In this document: piece by piece, positions 1 to 51,560 of the stretch
How positions within the stretch are numbered: the first letter of the stretch is position 1
Layout of the letters: every line of letters begins with the position of its first letter
Position numbers and translations under genes: made by a program
Notes under the pieces: model-generated
The model's database searches: none
What the model was told of the DNA's origin: nothing
The model's input: only the letters and a program-made list of their open reading frames with translations
Origin: Azolla caroliniana
Taxonomy: Eukaryota; Plantae; Polypodiophyta
NCBI GenBank assembly: GCA_043228905.1
Contig: JBHGNT010000022.1
Span: 5,270,001-5,334,000, forward strand
Direction: 5' to 3'
DNA: 64,000 nucleotides

Positions 1-2533
1 TCCATTTGAAGTGGATGGTCGGAGGGTACGTAGGGTGAAGTTCGTCCCGGTGTCGGACTATGGAGTGCATCTGACAGCTCTCGCAAGTTGTCACGAATCG
101 ATGCACGTCCCGGTATAGTCCCGGCCACCAGTACTTCCCCTTTATCTTCTCGAACGTGGCCCAAGTTCCACGGTGTCCGGCCCAAGGGCTGTCGTGGTAG
201 GCCGTCAGCAGCTCCTCCTGTTCTTCCTTCATCGCCACCACCCGGAGCGGAGCGCCGTCCCTCTTCTTCGGGTGCTTCCATAAGTATCCGTCCCGGAGAA
301 AGAATCGGTAAGCTTTCTTCTGGATCCGGTTGGCCTCGTCCTTCGTCCATGACGCATCCGGCGTCATTGTCCTCAAGAATCCACCGATCTGGAGCCACTC
401 GCCGTCGTACTTGCTCTCGTCGAAGTCGTTAAGTGCCGGAGTGCTCGTCCCATCGGTCGTCACGTTCGCCGCCTCGAAGAAGTCCACGCCGACTTCTTCG
501 TCCTCTGAAACCATGCCGCCCTCGTCATCAAACCTCGCCCTCAAAAGCATGTCGGCCATGGCGTTGTCCTTTCCGGAAATGTGTCGTATCTCTGGGTCTA
601 GGGACTTGATGTACGCTATCCACCTGAGCATCGCCAGGTCCGGTGTCGCGCATCCGGAAACCATGCCAAGAATCGGCAGGCAATCCGTCCCGATAATCAC
701 TTCTGTCCCGATCAGGTAGTCTTTGTCCGCCTTTACTGCCGAAACGATACTCCAGAGTTCACGTTTAACCTGGGCGTACCCTCGCTGTCGCTCACTGAGG
801 ACCTTAGCGCCGAATCGGATCGGGAACCGGGTGTCGTCCTCGTCTTCTTGGTTGACGACCCATCCGATCCCGGTCGGGCTCGTATCCACCGTTATGTATA
901 CCGGGGTACCCTTCTCGTAGACAGCCTTCCGGAGCGCCGGAGCTGCCGCAAGAGCCTCCTTCAGCTTCCGGACCGACTGCGTGTGCTCGTCTCGCCACTC
1001 GAATTTTCGCCCTTTTTTCAGCAACCCGTATAGCGGCTCCGCAACGTGGGCGTAATGTGGGATCCATATGTGGTAGAATGCGCATGCCCCCAGGAACCTC
1101 CGAACTTCCGTAACCGAGCTACAGTCGGTCTTCATCACGGAGATGGCTTCTACCTTTGCCGGAGACGGCTTCCGGCCATATGGTCCACATAGATGCCCGA
1201 CCACCAGGATTTCTGATTGCCCGAAGGCCGATTTCTCCTCGGAGAAGGTGAGCCTAGCATCCTCTAGCCTTTGTAGCACCTTCTCGCAGTCGTCGATGTG
1301 TTTCTCCACGAATCGCCGGCATCCGTCCGGCCCGACTGTCTTGTCCTTCTCCTCCACCGGGCACCCCTTAATCGGGATGTCGTCCAGAAATGGCATGGTG
1401 ATGTCGGGGATGCAATCCCTCAGTACCTTGTTCATTGCATTTACCATGTGAGCCACCGAGTTAGTCCCTCCTTGTGGCAGGGTACACATTCGCACTAGGC
1501 CGAGGGGAGTTCGCATCGTCGTAATGTCTCTGCTCTCCACGGCTAGCTGGAACTGGTCGTACCCTGAGTACAGATCACCGACCGAGTAAATCGACCTTCC
1601 GGCAAAGGCCTCCGCAAACTCGTCTATGGTTGGTCTGATTCCTGCGTTTCGAATGGTCACTCTGTTGATCGGCTGCAGGTCTTGAATGAAGCGCAACGTT
1701 CCGTTTTTCTTCGGTACGGTAAACCATCGGTTCGAGTACGGGACACTCGACGGTTCAAGAATGCCCATATCTACTTTCTGCCTCAATAGCTCCATCAACT
1801 TCGGGATGTGAGCTCTCGGTACCGGAATCGGCTTGAGATTCCACGGCACATGCGGTACCGTGAATATCACCATCGGCTCCACGATCGTCGGGTCTACGCA
1901 CCTGATCTCTTCCGGTGAGAATGCGAAGGCTTTCCTGTGCCTTCCGAGCATCCTCCGAAACCGGTCTTCCTCCGCCGGCAGTAGGAACCCGCCCCCACCG
2001 ATCTTGAGCTCCCGGAGCGTCCCGTCGGTGAAGGTGTGTCCTATGCAGGCCGGATCTCGTAAACTGGGGTTCGACGCAACCCCTCTGATCCGGGACTCGC
2101 TGCCCTCCGGTAAGGGTGCCGCGACTAGCCTTACCTTCCAGTCCACAGCCTTGTACTTGGTGCTAACTAGGGCCGTCCGATCCGACCCGAGCCCCCGACT
2201 GAAGTTCGCGATGACTTCGTACATCTCTTCGGAACATACCGGTATCGTCCGGTCTTCGTTAAGGTCTTCTCCGGCAACCTTCCTCAGCATCCCTAAGGTG
2301 TCGTCGAAGGAGACCGCCTCCACGGCTCCGCTAATTTCCTCGTCCGGGCCTAGAACTCCGCACGCTCGAAGTCGCTCTTCCGCCCTTGTCTTTTCTCGGC
2401 CAACGATGCCGACAATCATACACCCTCCGTTGTCGAAGAAGCAAAACCTCCTGCCTATCGTACAATCGTGGGGTCTTTCCTGAGTGTCCGGACTGTCTCG
2501 GCCCCACGCCTTGGCAGCCCTCTCTAAAAATCC
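1..2533 (-). CDS. pol: gypsy pol (RT, RNase H, integrase N-terminus), -1 frame relative to gag-pro, apparently open to the window edge
   Basis: Manual translation gives TKYKAVDWKV, RT motif ITMPFLDDIPIKG (~1370-1410) and integrase Zn finger YWWPGLYRDVHRFVTTCESC near 90-135, all in one frame. Absence from the ORF track is consistent with no stop before position 1. Confidence 0.85.
2467..2533 (-). promoter_or_regulatory. putative -1 programmed ribosomal frameshift signal (GGAUUUU + pseudoknot)
   Basis: G GAU UUU UAG at 2533-2524. Stems GGGCUG/CAGUCC and CGUGGGG/CCCCACG are interleaved in H-type order. Confidence 0.75.
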
Positions 2534-4602
2534 TCCCGGTTCTCGCCACCGAGGGACTCGCGGTTTCTCTCGTGGTTCGGCCGCACCGTCAAAAATTGCA
2601 CCGAATGGCACCCGTCCTGGCTTTTGACCCTCGCGTAGGCCGAACCGTTGTCCAGCACCTTGGTCTCTATTCTCGCCGCCGTGATGTATGGTTCCCCTAA
2701 TATGACCGGATGCGAGGACGTCTCCTGTACGAAGAAGTGCTGGTCAATCTCGACGTCGCCGATCTTTACTCGCACATTCGGGCAGGCCCCATGCAGTTCC
2801 TCGGTGGCGCGCGTCGCCGCACGTATCTTCCACCCGTGCTTGGTGTTGATCGGCCACTTCCCCTTCTTATAGAAGTCCATGAACATTAGGTTTATTTCCG
2901 AACCGTGGTCCACCAACGCCACCACCGGTTCCCGAACATCTCCGATCTTTACCGGGGTCTCCGTGGTCGCTCGGGCCCAGTGTGGCCTCGAATAGTGGCT
3001 CTCCGCCCACTCATCTTCCGGTTCCGTCTCCGTCGACAGTCTCTTCCGTTTCACCAAGTCTACAATGGAGTCGTGGAACTCCTTCTTGGCGATCCCTAGC
3101 ACCTCCCGTAATGACAGCTCCACTTTGTTGTCGAGGATCCGTTCTTCTAGGACCTTTTGTAGGTCCGTAGCCCTTTCTATTTCTATCCCCAGTCGGTACC
3201 CGCCCTTCCTGGGGTTATCTTGCGGGCCGGGCCCACCGGCATCGTTCCGTCGTTGCCCGGATCGGGTCTCGTACCGTTGTGAGGGCCCGGCCGCTCCTGC
3301 TTTCCCCACTCGTTTTTCTTCTACCAGAGCCTCGTAGTTCCGGCAAGCGGCTTCTACGAAGCCCGTCTTCTCTTCGACCGGATCGCTCCACCCGGTTATT
3401 TCCCGGACCCGTCTCTCAGCGCGGTCCGTTTCATCTTTCCTCAGCCGCGCTCCGGCGAGGCCTTCCAGCATTGCCAACCAGAAACCGTCTTTACTCTCCT
3501 TTCGGGCCTCGCTGCCCCCGACCTAAATACCGGCTGACGCTGAGTAGTGGATGACCTCCACGTGTCGGGCCGCTGCCTCTTCCATCAGTCTCTTCATACC
3601 TCCTCGCCCGTCGTTTCGGCTCAGGGCCCTCCTGGTGTCGCCAGCGTGCACCCGGCCTTCCCACAGGTACACCACCCGGTTTCTCAACGCCTCTGCGAAA
3701 TCGCCGCAGTCCTTCCGAATGTGGCTGACCTCGTCGCACCACATGCACCTGTTCCCCGTTGCCGGCCGTCGGTCACGAGCCGGTTCGCCGCCTTCCCTTC
3801 GAGTTTGGGCGATCTGGAGATCCTTTATCGCCCGCGTCAACTCCTCTAGTGCTGCTCCTCCGGACGAGCCATTGACCATGCTGGTCGAAGCCGGACTGGT
3901 TTCGGGCCATTCCCGGGTTTCTTCCCTTCGCACTTGCGGCGCCGGTTCAAGCCTCCTTGCTGTAACAGCACCCGCACCGGCCGCCCCGTTGTCAGCCCAT
4001 TCTCGCCATTTGTCGAAACGGCCACAGACTCTCTTAACCGCAGCGCAGTCGGTCGTCAACCCGTCTTCAGTTTCCAGCAAGGAGCCGACTTGATCCCGGT
4101 CCCGCTCGTCCACCGACTTGACGAACAGTAGGACCCGGCTCGTATCCAGGATAGTTCGGTCAAGCGCCGAAAGGCGCGCAAAGCGTTCTTCGAACTCCCG
4201 GAGGAGTGCCGACGCGTTTCTTCCTTTGCCGGGGGACTCCACCCATTCCATGAAGTCCCGTTTCGAAAGCCGGAGCGCGTCGTCCAGCCCATATTTCTCT
4301 AGGAGTCGGCCTTCGAACTCCTCCCAGGTACGACTCTCCGCCCGTACCTCGAGCACCTCCTCATGGATGCTCGGCATCGCCACTCGAGGGAACCCGGCAA
4401 GACGCCTCTCTTCCGGAATGTGCCGCATCAGCATTTCCGCCCCGTAGGACGCCAAATACCTCGTAGCATCCTTTCCACTAAAACGGCCGATCGTACTGAT
4501 GACCGCCTCAATGGCTCTGTCGAGGGCACCGGTGCCCTCGCGTGTGCTCAATATCCGATCCACGGCCGAAGCCATGGCCTCTGCAAGATCCGACCCCTTC
4601 AT
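2524..4602 (-). CDS. gag: gypsy gag-protease, one in-frame TAG at 3523-3525
   Basis: ORFs 3523..4869 and 2524..3477 share a frame. Zinc knuckle CMWCDEVSHIRKDC; aspartic protease-like ALVDHGSEINLM...VILGEPY; ATG at 4602 just downstream of the PBS. Confidence 0.8.
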
Positions 4603-4624: not shown

Positions 4625-4642
4625 TTCACGTTGGGTTCACCA
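4625..4642 (-). promoter_or_regulatory. primer binding site, tRNA-Trp
   Basis: TGGTGAACCCAACGTGAA, one mismatch to the complement of the plant tRNA-Trp 3' end (TGGTGAACCCGACGTGAA), 4 nt after the LTR terminal CA. Confidence 0.8.
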
Positions 4643-4709
4643 AATATGTCGAGGTATTCCTCGCGGATGCGTGGATTGAGGCGGGACCTCGGGGGTCCTG
4701 TACCGAAGA

Positions 4710-4749
<40 letters not shown>

Positions 4750-4929
4750 CACTACGTGCGAGCGTAGATTCACAGGGACACGGCCCTTCGACGCAAAAAC
4801 GCGAGTGGGACAGCGACACAGAAAGACACGAAAGTATGTATGTATTGACAAGACAAACAACAAGAACACGAAGACTACAAAACACGAAGTCGGTTACAAC
4901 CGAACAGGCCGGCGAACAGATGCCGATAC

Positions 4930-5632
4930 TGTTGGGATTTCGGTCCCTCCGGATGGGATGTCCGGAGATGAATGACGGCAAGCCCGGTTGCGGTTACGGA
5001 GCCGGATGATGAAGACCCCGGCTACGGTGCCGGATGATGAAGACCCCGGCTACGGAGCCGGATGATGAATACCCCGGCTACGGAGTCGGATGATGAATAC
5101 CCCGGCTACGGAGCCGGATGATGAAGACCCCGGTTACGGAGCCGGATGACGAATGTACCCGGAGGGAGATCCGGATGCGGGGACATATTTGTGAATATGT
5201 TTGCCAAGAGCCCTTGAGGCTATATTTGTAAATAGTCCGAAAGTCATATGTGTATAAATATGACTTAGGGCAAACAGTTTAAGTTGTTGCTCATTTTCTG
5301 TTTTTTCACTGAGAGGAAGCAAAGTGAGAGCAGCCGAGAGAGAGATAGAGCGCGAGAGAGACGAAGAGGTAGACGCCTCTGTGTATTTCCGCCGCCTGTG
5401 GCGAGGACAGCGAGCTCAAGGTCGTTGCCTTGCAGCTCGCCATTGTATATTTCTCTGTGCATAGTTTGGTTTGGAGTCTCGCACTCCCGTGGTTTTTCCC
5501 GTATAGGGTTTTCCACGTTAATTCCTGTGTATCGCGTCTTTCTCTGTATTTCCTATTTTTCTGCTGCATTGATCCGCGATTACTCGGTTGTGGCCGAGTG
5601 GTGAAGGTGAATCCAAGCGTTGATTCCCAACA
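4930..5632 (+). repeat. copia 5' LTR with 28-bp U3 tandem array (~5002-5150)
   Basis: TGTTGGGA...TCCCAACA termini; unit CCGGATGATGAAGACCCCGGCTACGGAG x~5.5; TATA-like TATAAATA at ~5254. Confidence 0.95.
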
Positions 5633-5635
5633 AAC

Positions 5636-5647
5636 TGGTATCAGAGC
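5636..5647 (+). promoter_or_regulatory. primer binding site, tRNA-iMet
   Basis: TGGTATCAGAGC 3 nt after the LTR. Confidence 0.95.
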
Positions 5648-5661
5648 GACTGTTGCAGAAA

Positions 5662-8600
5662 ATGGAAGGCGGCGGCAGCGGGCAGCCGATGATGATGGTG
5701 CTGAATGCACAAAATTACGCCGACTGGAAGATCAAGATGGAGGACCTTCTGATTGTTCGGGACCTGTACGAACCGATTGACAGGTCGGAAATACCGAAAG
5801 GGGTACTTGAGTCGGAGTGGAAGCTCCTGAACCGGAAAGCCGTAGCGACGATCCGACAATACGTCGACGTGAGCGTCCTACAACATGTGGCAAACGACAC
5901 CAACGCATATGAGATGTGGAAGAAGCTGTCGGGCCTCTACGAGAGGAAGAATGCGTTGAACCGGACCTCCCTGATGAGGAAGATAGTGAATCTCAAGTAC
6001 CGGGACGGCGAGAGTATGGTGGAACACGTAAGCACGTTCATGGGATTCGTGAATCAGCTTGCGGCGATCAAGTTCCCGTTGGAGGATGCAATGCAAGCCA
6101 TCATCCTGATGTGTACACTGCCGGACAGCTGGGAGAACTTGGTGGTGACTCTCAGCACCTCCTGCACGGAAGACAACTTGTCCCTACAAACGGTAAAGAC
6201 AAGTATTCTAAATGAAGAAGCGCGTCGGAGAGATAAAGAACCGGCCTCCGACTCGAAGGCGCTGCTTACCGAATCGGAACGGGGAAGACACTGGAACCGG
6301 AGTCCGCAAAGACGGGAGAAGTCGGGGACCCGGTCGCAGTCAAGAGGAAGACCCACATGCTTCCACTGTGGGAAGCCGGGGCACTTTCGGAAGAATTGTC
6401 GGCATTACCGAAAGGACAACGGAGCCGACGACACGGATTCGAAGAAGTCACCGGAGAGAAACGGTGCATACCGGGGAGCCACGGACCGGAGAGGTCCGGA
6501 TCGGCGAGGGCAGGACCGGAAAGGAACGACGGCACTCGCGGCAAGTGAAGAGGAGATCATGCTCATCACCGAAGAAGGTGAACTAAACATTGCCGGCGAT
6601 GAGACGACCTGGGTGGTCGATTCCGGAGCGTCGTTCCACCTGACCCCGGAGAGAAGATACTTTTCATCCTACACAGCCGGCGAGCATGGCTGTGTTCGGA
6701 TGGGAAATGAAGGTACGTGCCGGATTGCCGGCATCGGAGACGTGTGGTTGACAACCCCGACCGGATGCAAAATGCTGCTGAAGGATGTCCGTCACGTTCC
6801 GGAGGTTCGATTGAACCTGATTTCGGCCGGGAGGCTAGACGATGAAGGCTACACAGGTAGCATCCGGAACGGCGTAATGAAGTTCAGCAAGGGGAGCCTG
6901 ATAGTGGCTCGGGCCCGGAAAGTCAACACACTGTACCTGATGAATGCCCGGTTATGTCCGGAAGAGCTGAATGTGGCAGCCGACACTGCCGGTGAGCTGT
7001 GGCACAAAAGACTGTGCCACATGAGTGAGAAGGGGATGAAGAGGCTTGCAGAAGACAACCTTATCCTAGTGAAGCATGTGCACCTGGAGAAGTGCACCGA
7101 TTGCCTGGCCGGTAAGCAGAACCGAACCTCCTTCCACTCAAGGCCACCGACGAGACGTAGCGCACCATTGGAGTTGGTGCACACTGATGTGTGTCAGGTA
7201 GAAACGAAGTCACATGGCGGAGCCCAGTACTTCGTGACTTTCATTGATGATCACAGCCGGAAGCTGTGGACGGCGCCGTTGAAGACAAAGGACCAAGTGT
7301 TGTCCGTCTTCAAAGAACTCCACGCGAGAGTGGAAAGAGAATCCGGCAAGAAGCTGAAAGCGATACGAGCGGATAACAGAGGGGAATACCGGGGGCAGTT
7401 CGCGGAGTACTGTCGCTCGAAGGGAATCCGGCTCGAGTTTACTGTGCCGAAGACGCCGGAACTGAACGGGCTGGCCGAGAGGATGAACCGGACCATAATG
7501 GAGAGGGTCCGGAGTATGCTAGCGCATGCGAAATTACCCAAGGGGTTTTGGGCTGAGGCGATGTCGACGGCGACATACGTGATAAATAGATCACCCTCAG
7601 TACCTTTGGACGGAGACACGCCGCAGAGAGTGTGGACCGGTAAGGAAGTGTCCTACCGGCATCTGAAGGTGTTCGGGTGTCTCGCATACGTGCATGTGGC
7701 AAAGGACCGGAGAGGAAAGCTAGATCCAAAGACCCGGCCATGCATATTCCTCGGTTACGGCGATGACGAGTTCGGCTACCGAGTATGGGACCCGGTCGAC
7801 AAGAAGATATTCAGGAGTCGAGACATCATCTTCATGGAGGACAAGACACTCGCCGACTGGGAGTCGGAGAAGAAGGTGAAGAGCTCCAAGTCGACCGGTG
7901 AGGATCAACTCTACGAGGAGCAGTCCCGACCGGCAAGAGACCGGTTAGCACTCGAGGATCCGGCCGAAGACGGTGAAGAAACAGGACCGGCCGAAGAAGA
8001 TGAAAATGATACCGGAACTGGCCCCGATCCCGAAATGGATTCGGATGAAGAAGAATCGGGAGAACCGGTTACCGAAGCTCCGGAACGGAGATATCCTCTA
8101 AGAGAGAGAAGGGCCCCCCGGAGATTTCCGGAACCAGAGCACGTGCTGCTAACCGACGAAGGGGAGCCGGAGAGCTTTGAAGAAGCAAAGCATGACACCC
8201 AGAGCCGCAGGTGGTTGAGTGCCATGCAGGACGAGATGGATTCCCTGCATGAGAACCACACATATGAACTTGTGGAGTTGCCGAAAGGAAAGCGGGCACT
8301 TCGAAACAAGTGGGTGTTCAAGCTGAAACCGGGAGATGCCGGAAACCCCCCGAGATACAAAGCCAGGATCGTGGTGAAGGGGTTTCAGCAGAAGAAGGGC
8401 GTCGACTTCGACGAGATATTTGCTCCGGTAGTGAAGATGACCTCCATCCGGACGGTGCTGAGCATAGCGGCAAGCATGGACCTCGAGGTAGAACAGATGG
8501 ACGTGAAGACGGCATTCCTTCACGGTGACCTCGAAGAAGAGATCTACATGCAGCAACCGGAAGGATTCGAGAAGAAAGGGAAGGAGCACCTGGTATGCCG

Positions 8601-9735
8601 GTTGAAGAAGAGCCTTTACGGACTGAAGCAGGCTCCCCGGCAATGGTACCGGAAGTTCGACTCCTTCATGACCGACGAAGGGTACCACAAAACGCAGTCT
8701 GATCACTGCGTGTTTGTGAAGAAGTTCGAAGGAGGAGACTCTCTAATACTCCTCCTGTACGTGGACGACATGTTGATCGTCGGACGGGACCAGGTCAAGA
8801 TACGGACGCTGAAGAAAGCGCTTCTCCGAACCTTCTCAATGAAGGACCTGGGTCCGGCGAGGCAAATACTAGGGATGCACATCATCCGGGACCGGAAGAA
8901 GAAGCAGTTGTGGCTGTCACAGGAGAAGTACGTGACAAAGGTGCTTCACCGGTTCAACATGTCGGAAGCAAGACCGGTCGGGTCAACCCTCCCGGCAAAC
9001 TGCAAGTTGTCCAGCAAGCAAAGCCCCAAGACAAAGGCTGAGAAGGAGGACATGATGAAAGTACCATATGCCTCTGCCGTCGGAAGCTTGATGTACGCAA
9101 TGGTGTGTACAAGACCGGACATAGGATATGCAGTTGGAGTGGTGAGCCGGTACATGAGTAATCCCGGCAAAGAGCACTGGAACGCGGTCAAGTGGATACT
9201 CCGATACCTAAAGGGCACGGCAAACGTGTGCCTCCGATTCGGCTCTGGTAAGCCCGAACTCGACGGCTTTACCGATTCGGATATGTCGGCTGATGAAGAT
9301 ACCAGCCGGTCCACATCAGGGTATGTGATGACGCATGCAGGGGGAGCTGTTTCGTGGCAGTCGAGGCTGCAGAAGACGGTTGCGTTGTCAACCACGGAAG
9401 CGGAGTACATGGCGGCTGTTGAAGCCGGCAAGGAAATAATATGGATGAAGGACTTCATTAGAGAGCTCGGTATCCGACAAGAGGAGTACCGACTCTACTG
9501 CGACAGTCAAAGTGCCATCCACCTTGCGAAGAACGCGGCCTATCACTCCCGGACGAAGCACATCCAGCGAAGATATCACTGGATCCGGGAAAGGATAGAA
9601 GACCAGGAGTTCATGCTGACGAAAATCCACACGGAAGAGAACGGGTCAGATATGCTGACCAAAGTGCTCACACCCGACAAGCTGGAAGCGTGCCGGAAGA
9701 GGGTCGGATTGGAGAGACATCCCATGCCGAAGTGA
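5662..9735 (+). CDS. copia gag-pol polyprotein (~1357 aa; Tnt1-like)
   Basis: CFHCGKPGHFRKNC knuckle, protease WVVDSGAS, GAG-pre LWHKRLCH, integrase FIDD/ADN/AERMN, RT LYVDDML, RNaseH STTEAEY/YCDSQSA. Probable ATG at 5662. Confidence 0.97.
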   Translation: MEGGGSGQPMMMVLNAQNYADWKIKMEDLLIVRDLYEPIDRSEIPKGVLESEWKLLNRKAVATIRQYVDVSVLQHVANDTNAYEMWKKLSGLYERKNALNRTSLMRKIVNLKYRDGESMVEHVSTFMGFVNQLAAIKFPLEDAMQAIILMCTLPDSWENLVVTLSTSCTEDNLSLQTVKTSILNEEARRRDKEPASDSKALLTESERGRHWNRSPQRREKSGTRSQSRGRPTCFHCGKPGHFRKNCRHYRKDNGADDTDSKKSPERNGAYRGATDRRGPDRRGQDRKGTTALAASEEEIMLITEEGELNIAGDETTWVVDSGASFHLTPERRYFSSYTAGEHGCVRMGNEGTCRIAGIGDVWLTTPTGCKMLLKDVRHVPEVRLNLISAGRLDDEGYTGSIRNGVMKFSKGSLIVARARKVNTLYLMNARLCPEELNVAADTAGELWHKRLCHMSEKGMKRLAEDNLILVKHVHLEKCTDCLAGKQNRTSFHSRPPTRRSAPLELVHTDVCQVETKSHGGAQYFVTFIDDHSRKLWTAPLKTKDQVLSVFKELHARVERESGKKLKAIRADNRGEYRGQFAEYCRSKGIRLEFTVPKTPELNGLAERMNRTIMERVRSMLAHAKLPKGFWAEAMSTATYVINRSPSVPLDGDTPQRVWTGKEVSYRHLKVFGCLAYVHVAKDRRGKLDPKTRPCIFLGYGDDEFGYRVWDPVDKKIFRSRDIIFMEDKTLADWESEKKVKSSKSTGEDQLYEEQSRPARDRLALEDPAEDGEETGPAEEDENDTGTGPDPEMDSDEEESGEPVTEAPERRYPLRERRAPRRFPEPEHVLLTDEGEPESFEEAKHDTQSRRWLSAMQDEMDSLHENHTYELVELPKGKRALRNKWVFKLKPGDAGNPPRYKARIVVKGFQQKKGVDFDEIFAPVVKMTSIRTVLSIAASMDLEVEQMDVKTAFLHGDLEEEIYMQQPEGFEKKGKEHLVCRLKKSLYGLKQAPRQWYRKFDSFMTDEGYHKTQSDHCVFVKKFEGGDSLILLLYVDDMLIVGRDQVKIRTLKKALLRTFSMKDLGPARQILGMHIIRDRKKKQLWLSQEKYVTKVLHRFNMSEARPVGSTLPANCKLSSKQSPKTKAEKEDMMKVPYASAVGSLMYAMVCTRPDIGYAVGVVSRYMSNPGKEHWNAVKWILRYLKGTANVCLRFGSGKPELDGFTDSDMSADEDTSRSTSGYVMTHAGGAVSWQSRLQKTVALSTTEAEYMAAVEAGKEIIWMKDFIRELGIRQEEYRLYCDSQSAIHLAKNAAYHSRTKHIQRRYHWIRERIEDQEFMLTKIHTEENGSDMLTKVLTPDKLEACRKRVGLERHPMPK

Positions 9736-9745
9736 AGGGGGATTT
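9731..9745 (+). promoter_or_regulatory. polypurine tract
   Basis: AGTGAAGGGGGA immediately before the 3' LTR. Confidence 0.9.
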
Positions 9746-10448
9746 TGTTGGGATTTCGGTCCCTCCGGATGGGATGTCCGGAGATGAATGACGGCAAGCC
9801 CGGTTGCGGTTACGGAGCCGGATGATGAAGACCCCGGCTACGGTGCCGGATGATGAAGACCCCGGCTACGGAGCCGGATGATGAATACCCCGGCTACGGA
9901 GTCGGATGATGAATACCCCGGCTACGGAGCCGGATGATGAAGACCCCGGTTACGGAGCCGGATGACGAATGTACCCGGAGGGAGATCCGGATGCGGGGAC
10001 ATATTTGTGAATATGTTTGCCAAGAGCCCTTGAGGCTATATTTGTAAATAGTCCGAAAGTCATATGTGTATAAATATGACTTAGGGCAAACAGTTTAAGT
10101 TGTTGCTCATTTTCTGTTTTTTCACTGAGAGGAAGCAAAGTGAGAGCAGCCGAGAGAGAGATAGAGCGCGAGAGAGACGAAGAGGTAGACGCCTCTGTGT
10201 ATTTCCGCCGCCTGTGGCGAGGACAGCGAGCTCAAGGTCGTTGCCTTGCAGCTCGCCATTGTATATTTCTCTGTGCATAGTTTGGTTTGGAGTCTCGCAC
10301 TCCCGTGGTTTTTCCCGTATAGGGTTTTCCACGTTAATTCCTGTGTATCGCGTCTTTCTCTGTATTTCCTATTTTTCTGCTGCATTGATCCGCGATTACT
10401 CGGTTGTGGCCGAGTGGTGAAGGTGAATCCAAGCGTTGATTCCCAACA
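9746..10448 (+). repeat. copia 3' LTR
   Basis: Direct repeat of 4930-5632 at offset 4816; identical shadow ORFs in the track. Confidence 0.95.
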
Positions 10449-11143
10449 GATACCTGTTCGTAAACGCATAGAGGGGAATGAGTAGGTTGGAGGTGCTGCC
10501 GGAAGCACTCAGGCATTCCTCAGAGCAGCGCGGGCCTCCCGAAACCTGCACAGAAGGAAGCTATGGCGTTTGCAACCAGAAAGAGAGAGAGAGAGAGAGA
10601 AGCCTTCACACGCAAACCGACAGCACTTCGTCCTCGACTCACCGCGATCCCCTTACTCTCCTCGTCTCCCTCCTTTTTTAGGCAAGGAAGGAGCCGTTTC
10701 CCCTTTACTCCCTACCTACCGAATCTACCTAGGATCTCCTATGTACAACTTAAGGCGCACGTGCATGAAGAGTCGGTTTCTATGCTCCGGTACACCGATT
10801 CCGCTTGTGGACGGTTTTCTTCACGACACCGTGTGGCCTTAGCCACTTCTTGGCTGCTTCTGAGAGTGCTTGGCAGTCCATGGTTTCTTCAAGGTCGGTG
10901 AACGCTGGTGAGGGATGTGTGGGAGGAGGCTCTGTGTGCGCGGGCTCGCGTCTGATAATCTTCAATCGCCTGTCTGCGTTTGTGCTCCTCTGTTCGCGAA
11001 ATGTGAAGACCTCTATGCGGTGGGGGTTTTCTTGCTGCATGTTGGCGCTTGTTTTTCTTACCCACGCGTGTGCACATTGTGTACTACAATAGAATGACGT
11101 GCCATGTGGCGACGGTTTAATACCCTATTAATAGCCCCCTACA

Positions 11144-49700: not shown

Positions 49701-51560
49701 CTTCCCTACTGTAAAGGTCATCCACACATCCCCAAAATTTATGGGACAAGTCTATATACCCGAGGTGAATTGGATATTGATGGCTCTGTGTGTCTTCATT
49801 ACTGCAGTCTTTAAGACAACCACCTATATCGGAAATGCATATGGTAATTATTTCTCAATGAGCTTTCTATACAACTTTCTACTAAGTGTAAATTAGTGTA
49901 GACATTGGCTCATTGGTTCTTTATAAATGACCATGTGTGGTATCAAATTAAGGACAAATTTATGATTGATGCATTAGGCAAACATCAACATAGTTGTAAG
50001 TTTTTTGAATCAATGAGATCAAAGTTGATTGAGAAATAGTGTTCATGGATGAGTAAATGAAAGATTGCTTACATTTTGGATGCTTATAGTTGAAATCATT
50101 AGGTAGCAGTCAACATAGTTTTTTGAATCAATGAGGTCAAAGTGATTGAGAAATAGTGTTCATGGATGAGTAAATGAATTGAATCAATGAGGTCAAAGTT
50201 GATTGAGAAATAGTGTTCATGGAGGAGTAAATGAAATATTGCTTGCATTTTGGATGCTTATAGTTGAAATCATTAGGTAGCAGTCAACATAGCTAAAGGT
50301 AGAGATTGTTTATTTTAAGGCAAGTGCATGATGTTAAGGAATCAATATGAAGGCTAGAGATTGTTCTTTTGAACTATCTTTCTTGGACAAGAAATGGACG
50401 AAACTATGATCTAAAACACTTAAATCACACTCATGCTCTAAAATCCTACCTCTTTGCATAAGCATAAGATACATGATCCTAAGAAGTCAATAAGATTATC
50501 CATTCATGGACAATTGCATGGTTGGATAAAGTCTCATCGGTTATTGTTGGAATAATTTCCCTCATGTTATGCTCCTTTTGTAGGCATTGCTGTGATAGCC
50601 GTTATGATCGTGACAACGACGTTGATGACCCTTATCATGTTAATGATATGGCAGACAAACATATATCTTGCACTGGCCTTCTTCTCTATTTTTGGTTCAA
50701 TCGAGTTGTTATACTTCTCGGCCAACATATACAAGTTTGATCAAGGAGGGTGGCTACCAGTAGCATTTGCAACCTTCCTAGGAGCTCTTATGCTAATTTG
50801 GCAGTATGTGGCAAGCAAGAAATATACATTCGAAACTGATAACAAAGTGTCTATGGCATCATTAGCTGGAAGATTAGACAAGGAAATAGGTCTTACAAGG
50901 GTACCTGGGATGGGGCTCATGTATACACAACTAGTACATGGGGTGCCCCCAGTGTTTGACCATTTTGTGGAGAATTTAAGCGCCTTACACTCGGTCCTTG
51001 TGTTTGTGTCAGTTAAACATCTTCCGGTCTCATCAGTTCTGGACGAAGAGAGGTTCCTTGTGAGAAGAGTAGGAGACAAGAGGTACAGGATGTATAGAGC
51101 TGTGGTGAGATATGGATATTGGGATGCATTGATTGAGCACAAGAATTTTGAGTCCTTACTGATGGCAAGCTTGGAGGAAACCATAATGTCAAGCGCATGT
51201 GATCAAACATTAGAGCCAGAGACAGCGAACGGTAATGGTAGCGAATCAGAGGAGACAATCAGTGAAACTCCATTAATGATGTCGTCAAATACAAGTCAAA
51301 ATTTGAGGGAAAGGATAATCAAACACCAGAACGAGCTCATCGAGGAAGAATTGTCTTTCATTCGGAGGGCAAGGGAAGAAGGAGTGACTTACATGCTTGG
51401 AAATAGTGTAGTGGAAGCTTCTGAAAATGCTTCTTTTGGAAAGAAGATTGTTGTGAATGGCATCTATCATGGGCTACAACTCATATCTAGGAGGAGTAGA
51501 GTTGCACTTGAGATTCCACACAAGAGGCTGATGGAAGTTGGCATCACTTACACCATTTGA
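46270..51560 (+). CDS. HAK: HAK/KUP/KT potassium transporter (HAK5-like), 9 exons, ~813 aa, intact
   Basis: Exons 46270-46500, 46891-47122, 48178-48444, 48536-48586, 48733-48993, 49114-49166, 49354-49468, 49589-49843, 50584-51560. All introns are GT-AG with consistent phases (2442 nt). Motifs [84 protein letters not shown]. Confidence 0.95.
46654..46737. repeat. compound (CT)n(CA)n microsatellite in intron 1
   Basis: Direct reading. Confidence 0.95.
50007..50292 (+). repeat. local triplication in HAK intron 8
   Basis: GAATCAATGAG(G/A)TCAAAG..GAGTAAATGAA at 50007, 50125 and 50181. Confidence 0.85.

Follow-up and report, generated by a model that had tools for sequence, protein, structure and literature searches.

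A predicted -1 frameshift cassette between protease and reverse transcriptase in Phygy-type retrotransposons of Azolla caroliniana

The protease/reverse transcriptase border of the window element

We have analysed a stretch of 64,000 nucleotides from Azolla caroliniana (contig JBHGNT010000022.1, positions 5,270,001 to 5,334,000). The whole of this stretch is called the window below, and positions are counted from its first letter. At its left end lies a Ty3/gypsy retrotransposon copy on the minus strand, in which Pfam finds DUF4100 upstream, and RVT_1, RT_RNaseH and Integrase_H2C2 downstream, of the border between protease (PR) and reverse transcriptase (RT). At this border there are a conserved slippery heptamer, the stop codon of gag-pro and a predicted H-type pseudoknot, and our comparison of related copies indicates that together they very probably act as a programmed -1 frameshift signal. 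The features at the border are as follows.

2524..4602, minus strand: gag-pro frame, first ATG at 4602, with a Cys/His motif, DUF4100 and a protease-like domain (DHG at 2910)
2..2743, minus strand: pol open reading frame (ORF) in the -1 frame, with a linker of ~120 codons, RT, RNase H and the integrase Zn finger
2527..2533, minus strand: slippery heptamer G_GAU_UUU, in phase, coding Asp-Phe, the final two gag-pro codons
2521..2526, minus strand: 6-nt spacer TAGAGA, opening with the gag-pro stop UAG (2526-2524)
2513..2520, minus strand: stem 1, 5' strand, with the 6-bp core GGGCTG at 2520-2515 (8 bp in most relatives)
2490..2497, minus strand: stem 1, 3' strand, with the core CAGTCC at 2495-2490
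2502..2508, minus strand: stem 2, 5' strand CGUGGGG, from the H-type search
2467..2473, minus strand: stem 2, 3' strand CCCCACG, from the H-type search

On the minus strand of the window, the gag-pro terminus reads GAG GAT TTT TAG. From 2743 onwards pol stays open up to the edge of the window; it runs on to the left of the window and terminates there at a stop within integrase. The original prediction had described the heptamer, the stop and both stems, and the window sequence agrees with every coordinate, base for base; its pol frame with RT, RNase H and integrase Zn finger is likewise borne out by the ORFs and Pfam. The two stems are interleaved 6 nt past the heptamer, as had been proposed, and in the H-type search this pseudoknot outranks 100 of 100 dinucleotide shuffles. 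In addition, stem 1 can lengthen to GGGCTGCC/GACAGTCC, with one C-A mismatch.

On the other hand, certain results at the window site weigh against such a signal. Nested folding of the site is no better than that of shuffles (z -0.92, 0.01 and 0.38); it yields one stem or the other. The inter-stem loop is 4-6 nt in the window's clade, which exceeds compact H-types; as a precedent, Visna-Maedi virus has an interstem element of 7 nt (PMC5009743). An Rfam scan of the window site gives no family near the gathering score. Overall, the -1 frameshift cassette of the original prediction is strongly supported as a predicted signal by the conservation and covariation given below.

We have also observed a hairpin at 2477-2493 (minus strand) that overlaps loop 3 as well as stem 1 at its 3' end and is present at L034, L043, L045, L063 and L188 too. 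In the window's subclade it shows matched changes (GGA-CAC-UCC to GGG-CAC-CCC), and it is absent from other families. This hairpin could compete with the pseudoknot.

Conservation of the cassette and of the pol frame

The heptamer and the stop are retained in all of the 30 closest own-genome copies examined (30 of 40 scored, out of 3267 candidates). The pattern GGATTTYTRR-N14-19-TGGGG has 3989 matches in the genome versus 21 for a reversed control. When copies are defined by a protease-end anchor that is independent of the cassette sequence, GGATTTTTRR lies 24-30 nt past the anchor in 843 of 946 genomic copies, and the TRR is nearly always a stop. As the original prediction proposed that copies be aligned for heptamer conservation and stem covariation, this settles the first point in its favour; for the second, stem 1 covaries and stem 2 is mostly invariant. 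At 199 loci with a protease match (a redundant set, in part selected by pattern), GGWTTTY stands at the protease end in 169, is absent in 15 and is not reached in 15. Where a locus has a pol match, the frame of pol is mostly -1.

Offset and cassette recur in families down to ~60% protease identity. At protein level, 101 of 120 homologues reach the C-terminal region; 41 of these 101 end in DF and 16 more in PL, the latter typically as DF-x3-PL, and the DF/PL set includes entries from Physcomitrium, Adiantum and Riccia. Distant homologues, at 37-46% identity, terminate in DF, NF or GF. Judged from these alignments, the cassette is a lineage-wide trait, not a peculiarity of the window copy.

In the proposed mechanism, most ribosomes would halt at the UAG and release Gag-protease. 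A minority would stall at the pseudoknot with GAU and UUU in the P and A sites, shift to GGA and UUU, and go on to make Gag-PR-RT-RNase H-integrase. If most ribosomes stop at the UAG, protease would therefore be made at the level of Gag, and only RT and integrase would be rationed.

The offset could instead be a mutation in a dead copy or in a founder, or the result of transcriptional slippage on the T run. The window copy is indeed dead, because a premature TAG breaks its gag-pro frame at 3525-3523 and a copia element sits inside its 5' long terminal repeat (LTR), both of which are absent from the original prediction; moreover, of the 30 close copies no more than 5 have both sides open within their 3.4-kb loci. 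However, the conservation of offset and cassette across families to ~60% protease identity largely refutes this explanation, the T run is just 3-5 nt long, and in-frame variants amount to 4 copies versus thousands. We regard it as extremely improbable.

Those in-frame variants nevertheless count against frameshifting as a general rule. Of the 4 copies with an extra T at the site, one has a single open frame extending ~500 codons to either side, and P0225 (57% RT identity) has a single PR-RT ORF. Protease and RT in one frame, which the original prediction named as the observation to look for against it, are found in P0225 and in this one extra-T copy; most of the other loci with a pol match have pol in the -1 frame. 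The copy in question, L233, is the lone one with an extra T and a single open frame on both sides; it is not amplified, and could represent either a slip or an error of assembly. P0225 carries DUF4100, protease and RT within one 1374-aa ORF, and its cluster has one member.

Several further sequences differ at this position. P0252, P0331, P0409 and P0412 are gag-pro relatives that terminate in FFKDYG or FFQDYG, not in DF, and may, going by these termini, use another shift site or frame. L112, L116, L117, L121 and L128 form a separate repeat family, in which GGATTTTTGGGGAAACGG is followed by possible interleaved stems, with no open frame or protease match. A GGATTTTTGGGGAAAC repeat, which surfaced with a pattern having an N20-40 gap (112 matches versus 122 for the control), has no protease match either.

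Two other routes to pol have to be weighed for the -1 families. The first is an intron between protease and RT that is spliced as in Ogre, with the frame offset being incidental. An intron at the PR/RT border has been shown experimentally for Ogre (PMC6317226), and Riccia gene models link PR to RT via predicted introns. However, these introns cut at differing places, so that the fused models bypass the junction at varying positions, while plain-ORF pol proteins start past it. We found no donor-like site common to all 19 representatives described in the next section, and the pol frame is open and coding across the junction. Splicing also leaves the in-phase heptamer, the fixed spacer and the stem covariation unexplained, which makes this route very unlikely. 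Among the joints listed for run contigs aligned to the window there is no GT..AG joint across the junction, a result that is uninformative on splicing.

The second route is separate translation of pol by an internal start, reinitiation or a subgenomic RNA, with the structure serving packaging or dimerisation. Stops separate gag and pol in Tyl3 (PMC5014426). In the sister family with pol in the +1 frame (see below), a pol-frame AUG lies shortly 5' of the gag-pro stop, and the called pol of a relative starts with MIRFF. But this AUG arises from GAT-GAT codons, and in several older copies the 19 nt listed do not contain it. In the -1 families, the first pol AUG is found anywhere from codon 1 to codon 109 across 15 sequences, that is, its position is unconserved, whereas the heptamer is held in phase at a fixed distance from stem 1. 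Separate translation is rated as very improbable, and we retain the -1 frameshift for these families.

The pseudoknot in related families

For the structural comparison we used 19 hand-picked representatives, which stand for about 16 of 34 junction clusters, decayed singletons being omitted. An H-type pseudoknot is found in 19 of 19, with its onset 4-7 nt after the heptamer, and it is equalled by at most 1 of 100 shuffles. In an ungapped alignment of these sequences, both sides of stem 1 have changed at 8 of 11 pairs, and the swaps include G-C to C-G and U-A to C-G. The covariation of stem 1 is 0.415, compared with 0.198 for shuffled alignments and at most 0.146 in slid registers.

Stem 2 is also present in 19 of 19 representatives. 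It is mostly an invariant GGGG/CCCC, and matched changes are seen in three families. The support for stem 2 is weaker than that for stem 1, since it is mostly invariant, coincides in part with a conserved Trp-Gly dipeptide of the pol frame and had its register chosen for best complementarity. The coding overlap and the choice of register have to be set against the predicted pseudoknot, and so has the fact that the representatives were hand-picked, with related rows inflating the covariation counts.

A sister family with pol in the +1/-2 frame

Using a divergent homologue as the query, we came upon a sister family in the same genome, which is absent from the original prediction.

L142-L170, L191-L205 and L211-L230 (G000): loci of the young sister family, whose pol follows AG_GUU_UUU in the +1/-2 frame

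Its gag-pro terminus reads CAG GTT TTT GAC TAG, and pol lies in the +1 frame at 26 of 28 loci; the corresponding pattern has 130 matches versus 52 for the control. The 15 full-length copies were picked by gag-pro score, which favours intact elements; in 10 of them a 739-aa gag-pro and a pol of 1164-1182 aa are both unbroken, and 13 have an LTR identity of at least 99%. For sister pol, the ratio of non-synonymous to synonymous polymorphism (pN/pS; 24 of 35 copies kept) is 0.146 for variants in at least 3 copies versus 0.83 for private variants. The low pN/pS of the shared variants indicates purifying selection, so that sister pol was selected during the spread of the family in the +1 frame.

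In an RT tree of 53 rows (midpoint root; L031 excluded for its short match; labels of P0136 and P0139 inferred from N-termini), the sister family forms a 100/100 clade nested in a 100/99 clade, in which all other families with a label use the -1 frame. A relative of the sister family, at ~82% pol identity, has a gag-pro ending in DQVFY and a pol starting with MIRFFTRT; the two overlap substantially only at +1, on the premise that both are on one contig, their contigs being equal in length. In run X1, one contig of 444 nt crosses the sister junction with 19 substitutions and no gap; it is probably from DNA, and possibly from a close relative.

We hold, with moderate confidence, that the sister family reaches pol by a -2 slip. 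[quoted passage not shown] The sister pseudoknot, the strongest form that we have seen (10 + 8-9 bp), lies 5 nt behind AG_GUU_UUU and is 1 base nearer to the heptamer in the homologous register. Three points speak against a -2 slip: re-pairing in the P site, from GUU to AGG, is poor; a spacer of at most 5 nt is also seen in several -1 families if stem 1 gains a pair; and young sister copies have a pol-frame AUG just 5' of the stop.

A possible but less favoured explanation, for this family only, is that ribosomes enter pol by slipping +1 near UUU_GAC_UAG, in an antizyme-like way aided by the pseudoknot, or by reinitiation. According to PMC5009743, +1 frames are mostly entered by +1 shifting, and sister variants with UUU_UAC could re-pair at +1. 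However, the commonest active sister form has UUU_GAC, where +1 re-pairing is poor; the pseudoknot is at minus-shift distance and derived from the -1 signal; and the site is identical to the PRRSV -2 sequence. We therefore hold +1 slippage or reinitiation only tentatively, and keep the -2 slip as the working explanation. A two-step -1/-1 route was ruled out because the sister -1 frame has stops directly upstream; in the commonest sister form, this frame runs straight into UGA.

L206 and L207 (G000:C1 and C1099) are 4.4-kb derivatives with a 758-aa gag-pro ORF and near-identical LTRs, and with no pol or cassette. By their sequences, they are probably non-autonomous relatives of the +1 family that carry gag-pro only.

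Structure and classification of the window element

The remaining features of the window copy are listed below.

3525-3523, minus strand: premature TAG in the gag-pro frame
4625..4642, minus strand: primer binding site (PBS) TGGTGAACCCAACGTGAA, tRNA-Trp-like
4647..4929, minus strand: 5' LTR, 3' part, with 96.9% identity to the 3' LTR, which lies left of the window
4930..10447, plus strand: Ty1/copia insertion in the gypsy 5' LTR, with identical 703-bp LTRs, the 5-bp duplication GATAC and an unbroken 1374-aa ORF
10448..10828, minus strand: 5' LTR, 5' part, 98.2% identical to the 3' LTR
10832-10829, minus strand: 4-bp target duplication ACGG, with a second ACGG beyond the 3' LTR

The copia insertion into the gypsy 5' LTR is recent, as its LTRs are identical. 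Its LTR contains a short tandem repeat array, and the element lies outside the frameshift cassette.

The PBS TGGTGAACCCAACGTGAA is one that we take to be for tRNA-Trp. After the 5' LTR, the PBS sequence is TGGTGAACCC(G/A)ACGTGA, which, with the same presumed tRNA, agrees with the tRNA-Trp PBS of Phygy. A 4-bp NCGN target duplication is also present at relatives such as L197, L203, L204 and L208-L210. In Pfam, neither the window pieces nor the one complete pol of a relative that was scanned (P0388) show a chromodomain or aRH. Based on its target duplication, PBS and homologues, the window element is provisionally placed by sequence as a Phygy-type Ty3/gypsy element.

The protease-like domain of the window gives Asp_protease_2 in Pfam at E 0.066 and 0.011, below the cut-off. 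In 22 aligned homologues of this domain, Asp_protease_2 is found in 8 and gag-asp_proteas in 7, with E up to 0.05. In the ESM Atlas, the first matches score 0.96-0.97, and 17-50% of the members of their clusters carry aspartyl-protease families; a PDB sequence search using the protease alignment gave no match.

Elsewhere in the window, at 50556-51560 (plus strand), there is a K_trans potassium transporter coding stretch among nested retroelement remains.

Comparison with known systems

The original prediction had compared the element with alpharetroviruses, which make protease with Gag, and this agrees with the 0/-1 gag-pro-pol arrangement of Rous sarcoma virus (RSV; PMC1224870). As in RSV, protease is in the gag frame and pol would be reached by a pseudoknot-stimulated -1 shift (PMC1224870, PMC5009743), whereas here the element is a plant Ty3/gypsy element with a G_GAU_UUU heptamer. 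By this comparison, the resemblance is likely convergent. The further claim that GGAUUUU is a slippery site in dianthoviruses and umbraviruses also agrees with PMC5009743. These viruses share the heptamer and a nearby stop (G_GAU_UUU_UGG_UAG in pea enation mosaic virus), but their stimulator uses long-range pairing (PMC5009743) instead of the local H-type pseudoknot predicted here. Like canonical -1 signals, the cassette has an in-phase heptamer (a G_GA variant), a 6-nt spacer (5-9 nt in the canonical layout), a covarying stem 1 and an open second ORF.

It had also been claimed that a gag/pol break in plant elements normally lies upstream of the protease, and in that form this is wrong. In Additional file 5 of Neumann 2019 (PMC6317226), a split of GAG-PROT from RT-RH-INT is given for Ogre (35% spaced, 14% single stop) and for Retand (49% single stop). 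These Tat elements thus share with the window family a break after the protease, but have a spacer or intron, or a single in-frame stop, plus aRH, in place of overlapping frames with a -1 offset, a slippery site and a pseudoknot. The same file gives no lineage with an overlapping-frame break after the protease, and the ORF organisation of Phygy is entered as ND. As summarised in PMC5009743, the 2003 survey of Gao et al. reports only +1 offsets, in two plant element types.

Phygy is described with a 4-bp NCGN target duplication and a tRNA-Trp PBS (PMC6317226). The window element resembles it in its 4-bp NCGN duplication, its Trp-type PBS and Physcomitrium homologues ending in DFGEVPL; no extra domain came up in the Pfam scan of P0388 and the window pieces. 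In size, the window family (~7.0 kb) lies below the 7.7-10.0 kb given for Phygy, and the sister families are 7.5-8.4 kb.

As natural -2 cases, reviews name phage Mu, the arteriviruses and Trichomonas vaginalis virus 1 (TVV1), the arterivirus one being protein-driven. The AG_GUU_UUU of the sister family fits the RG_GUU_UUU of the arterivirus nsp2TF -2/-1 signal, with pol in the -2 frame. The PRRSV signal has no RNA structure and requires nsp1beta/PCBP at CCCANCUCC, whereas the sister family has a pseudoknot of 10-bp and 8-9-bp stems and no CCCANCUCC motif at 10 nt. By analogy, the sister signal may work like the arterivirus signal, but it is no member of that class. Within Trichomonas vaginalis viruses, TVV1 uses -2 and TVV2-4 use -1 (PMC5009743), a precedent for a switch within a lineage.

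Discussion

Post-protease breaks in plant elements were already known from Ogre and Retand. What appears to be new here is an overlapping-frame break after a plant protease, together with a putative switch from -1 to -2. In our literature searches, outside the scope of which were the text of Gao et al. 2003 and two Neumann supplements, both the cassette and a -2 shift in a retrotransposon were undescribed.

Taking all the families together, we lean slightly towards the view that in Phygy-type elements of non-seed plants a shift after the protease, driven by the pseudoknot, limits RT and integrase, and that one active clade has been retuned from -1 to -2. If so, the retuning would consist of a one-base register change to AG_GUU_UUU and a shorter spacer on the same pseudoknot. 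A nuclear retroelement would then have a natural -2 frameshift that is driven by RNA structure, and this would serve as a natural test of the mRNA-tension model. Since the -1 and the putative -2 families share a pseudoknot scaffold, they would offer a ready comparison of what sets the direction of shifting on plant ribosomes.

For the biology of these elements, such a signal would be a third plant route, beside the Ogre intron and the Retand stop, to Gag-level protease with rationed RT, and would account for the false splicing of gene models across the PR/RT junction. It would also fill the ND entry of Phygy, that is, it would explain how pol is expressed in a major gypsy lineage of non-seed plants.
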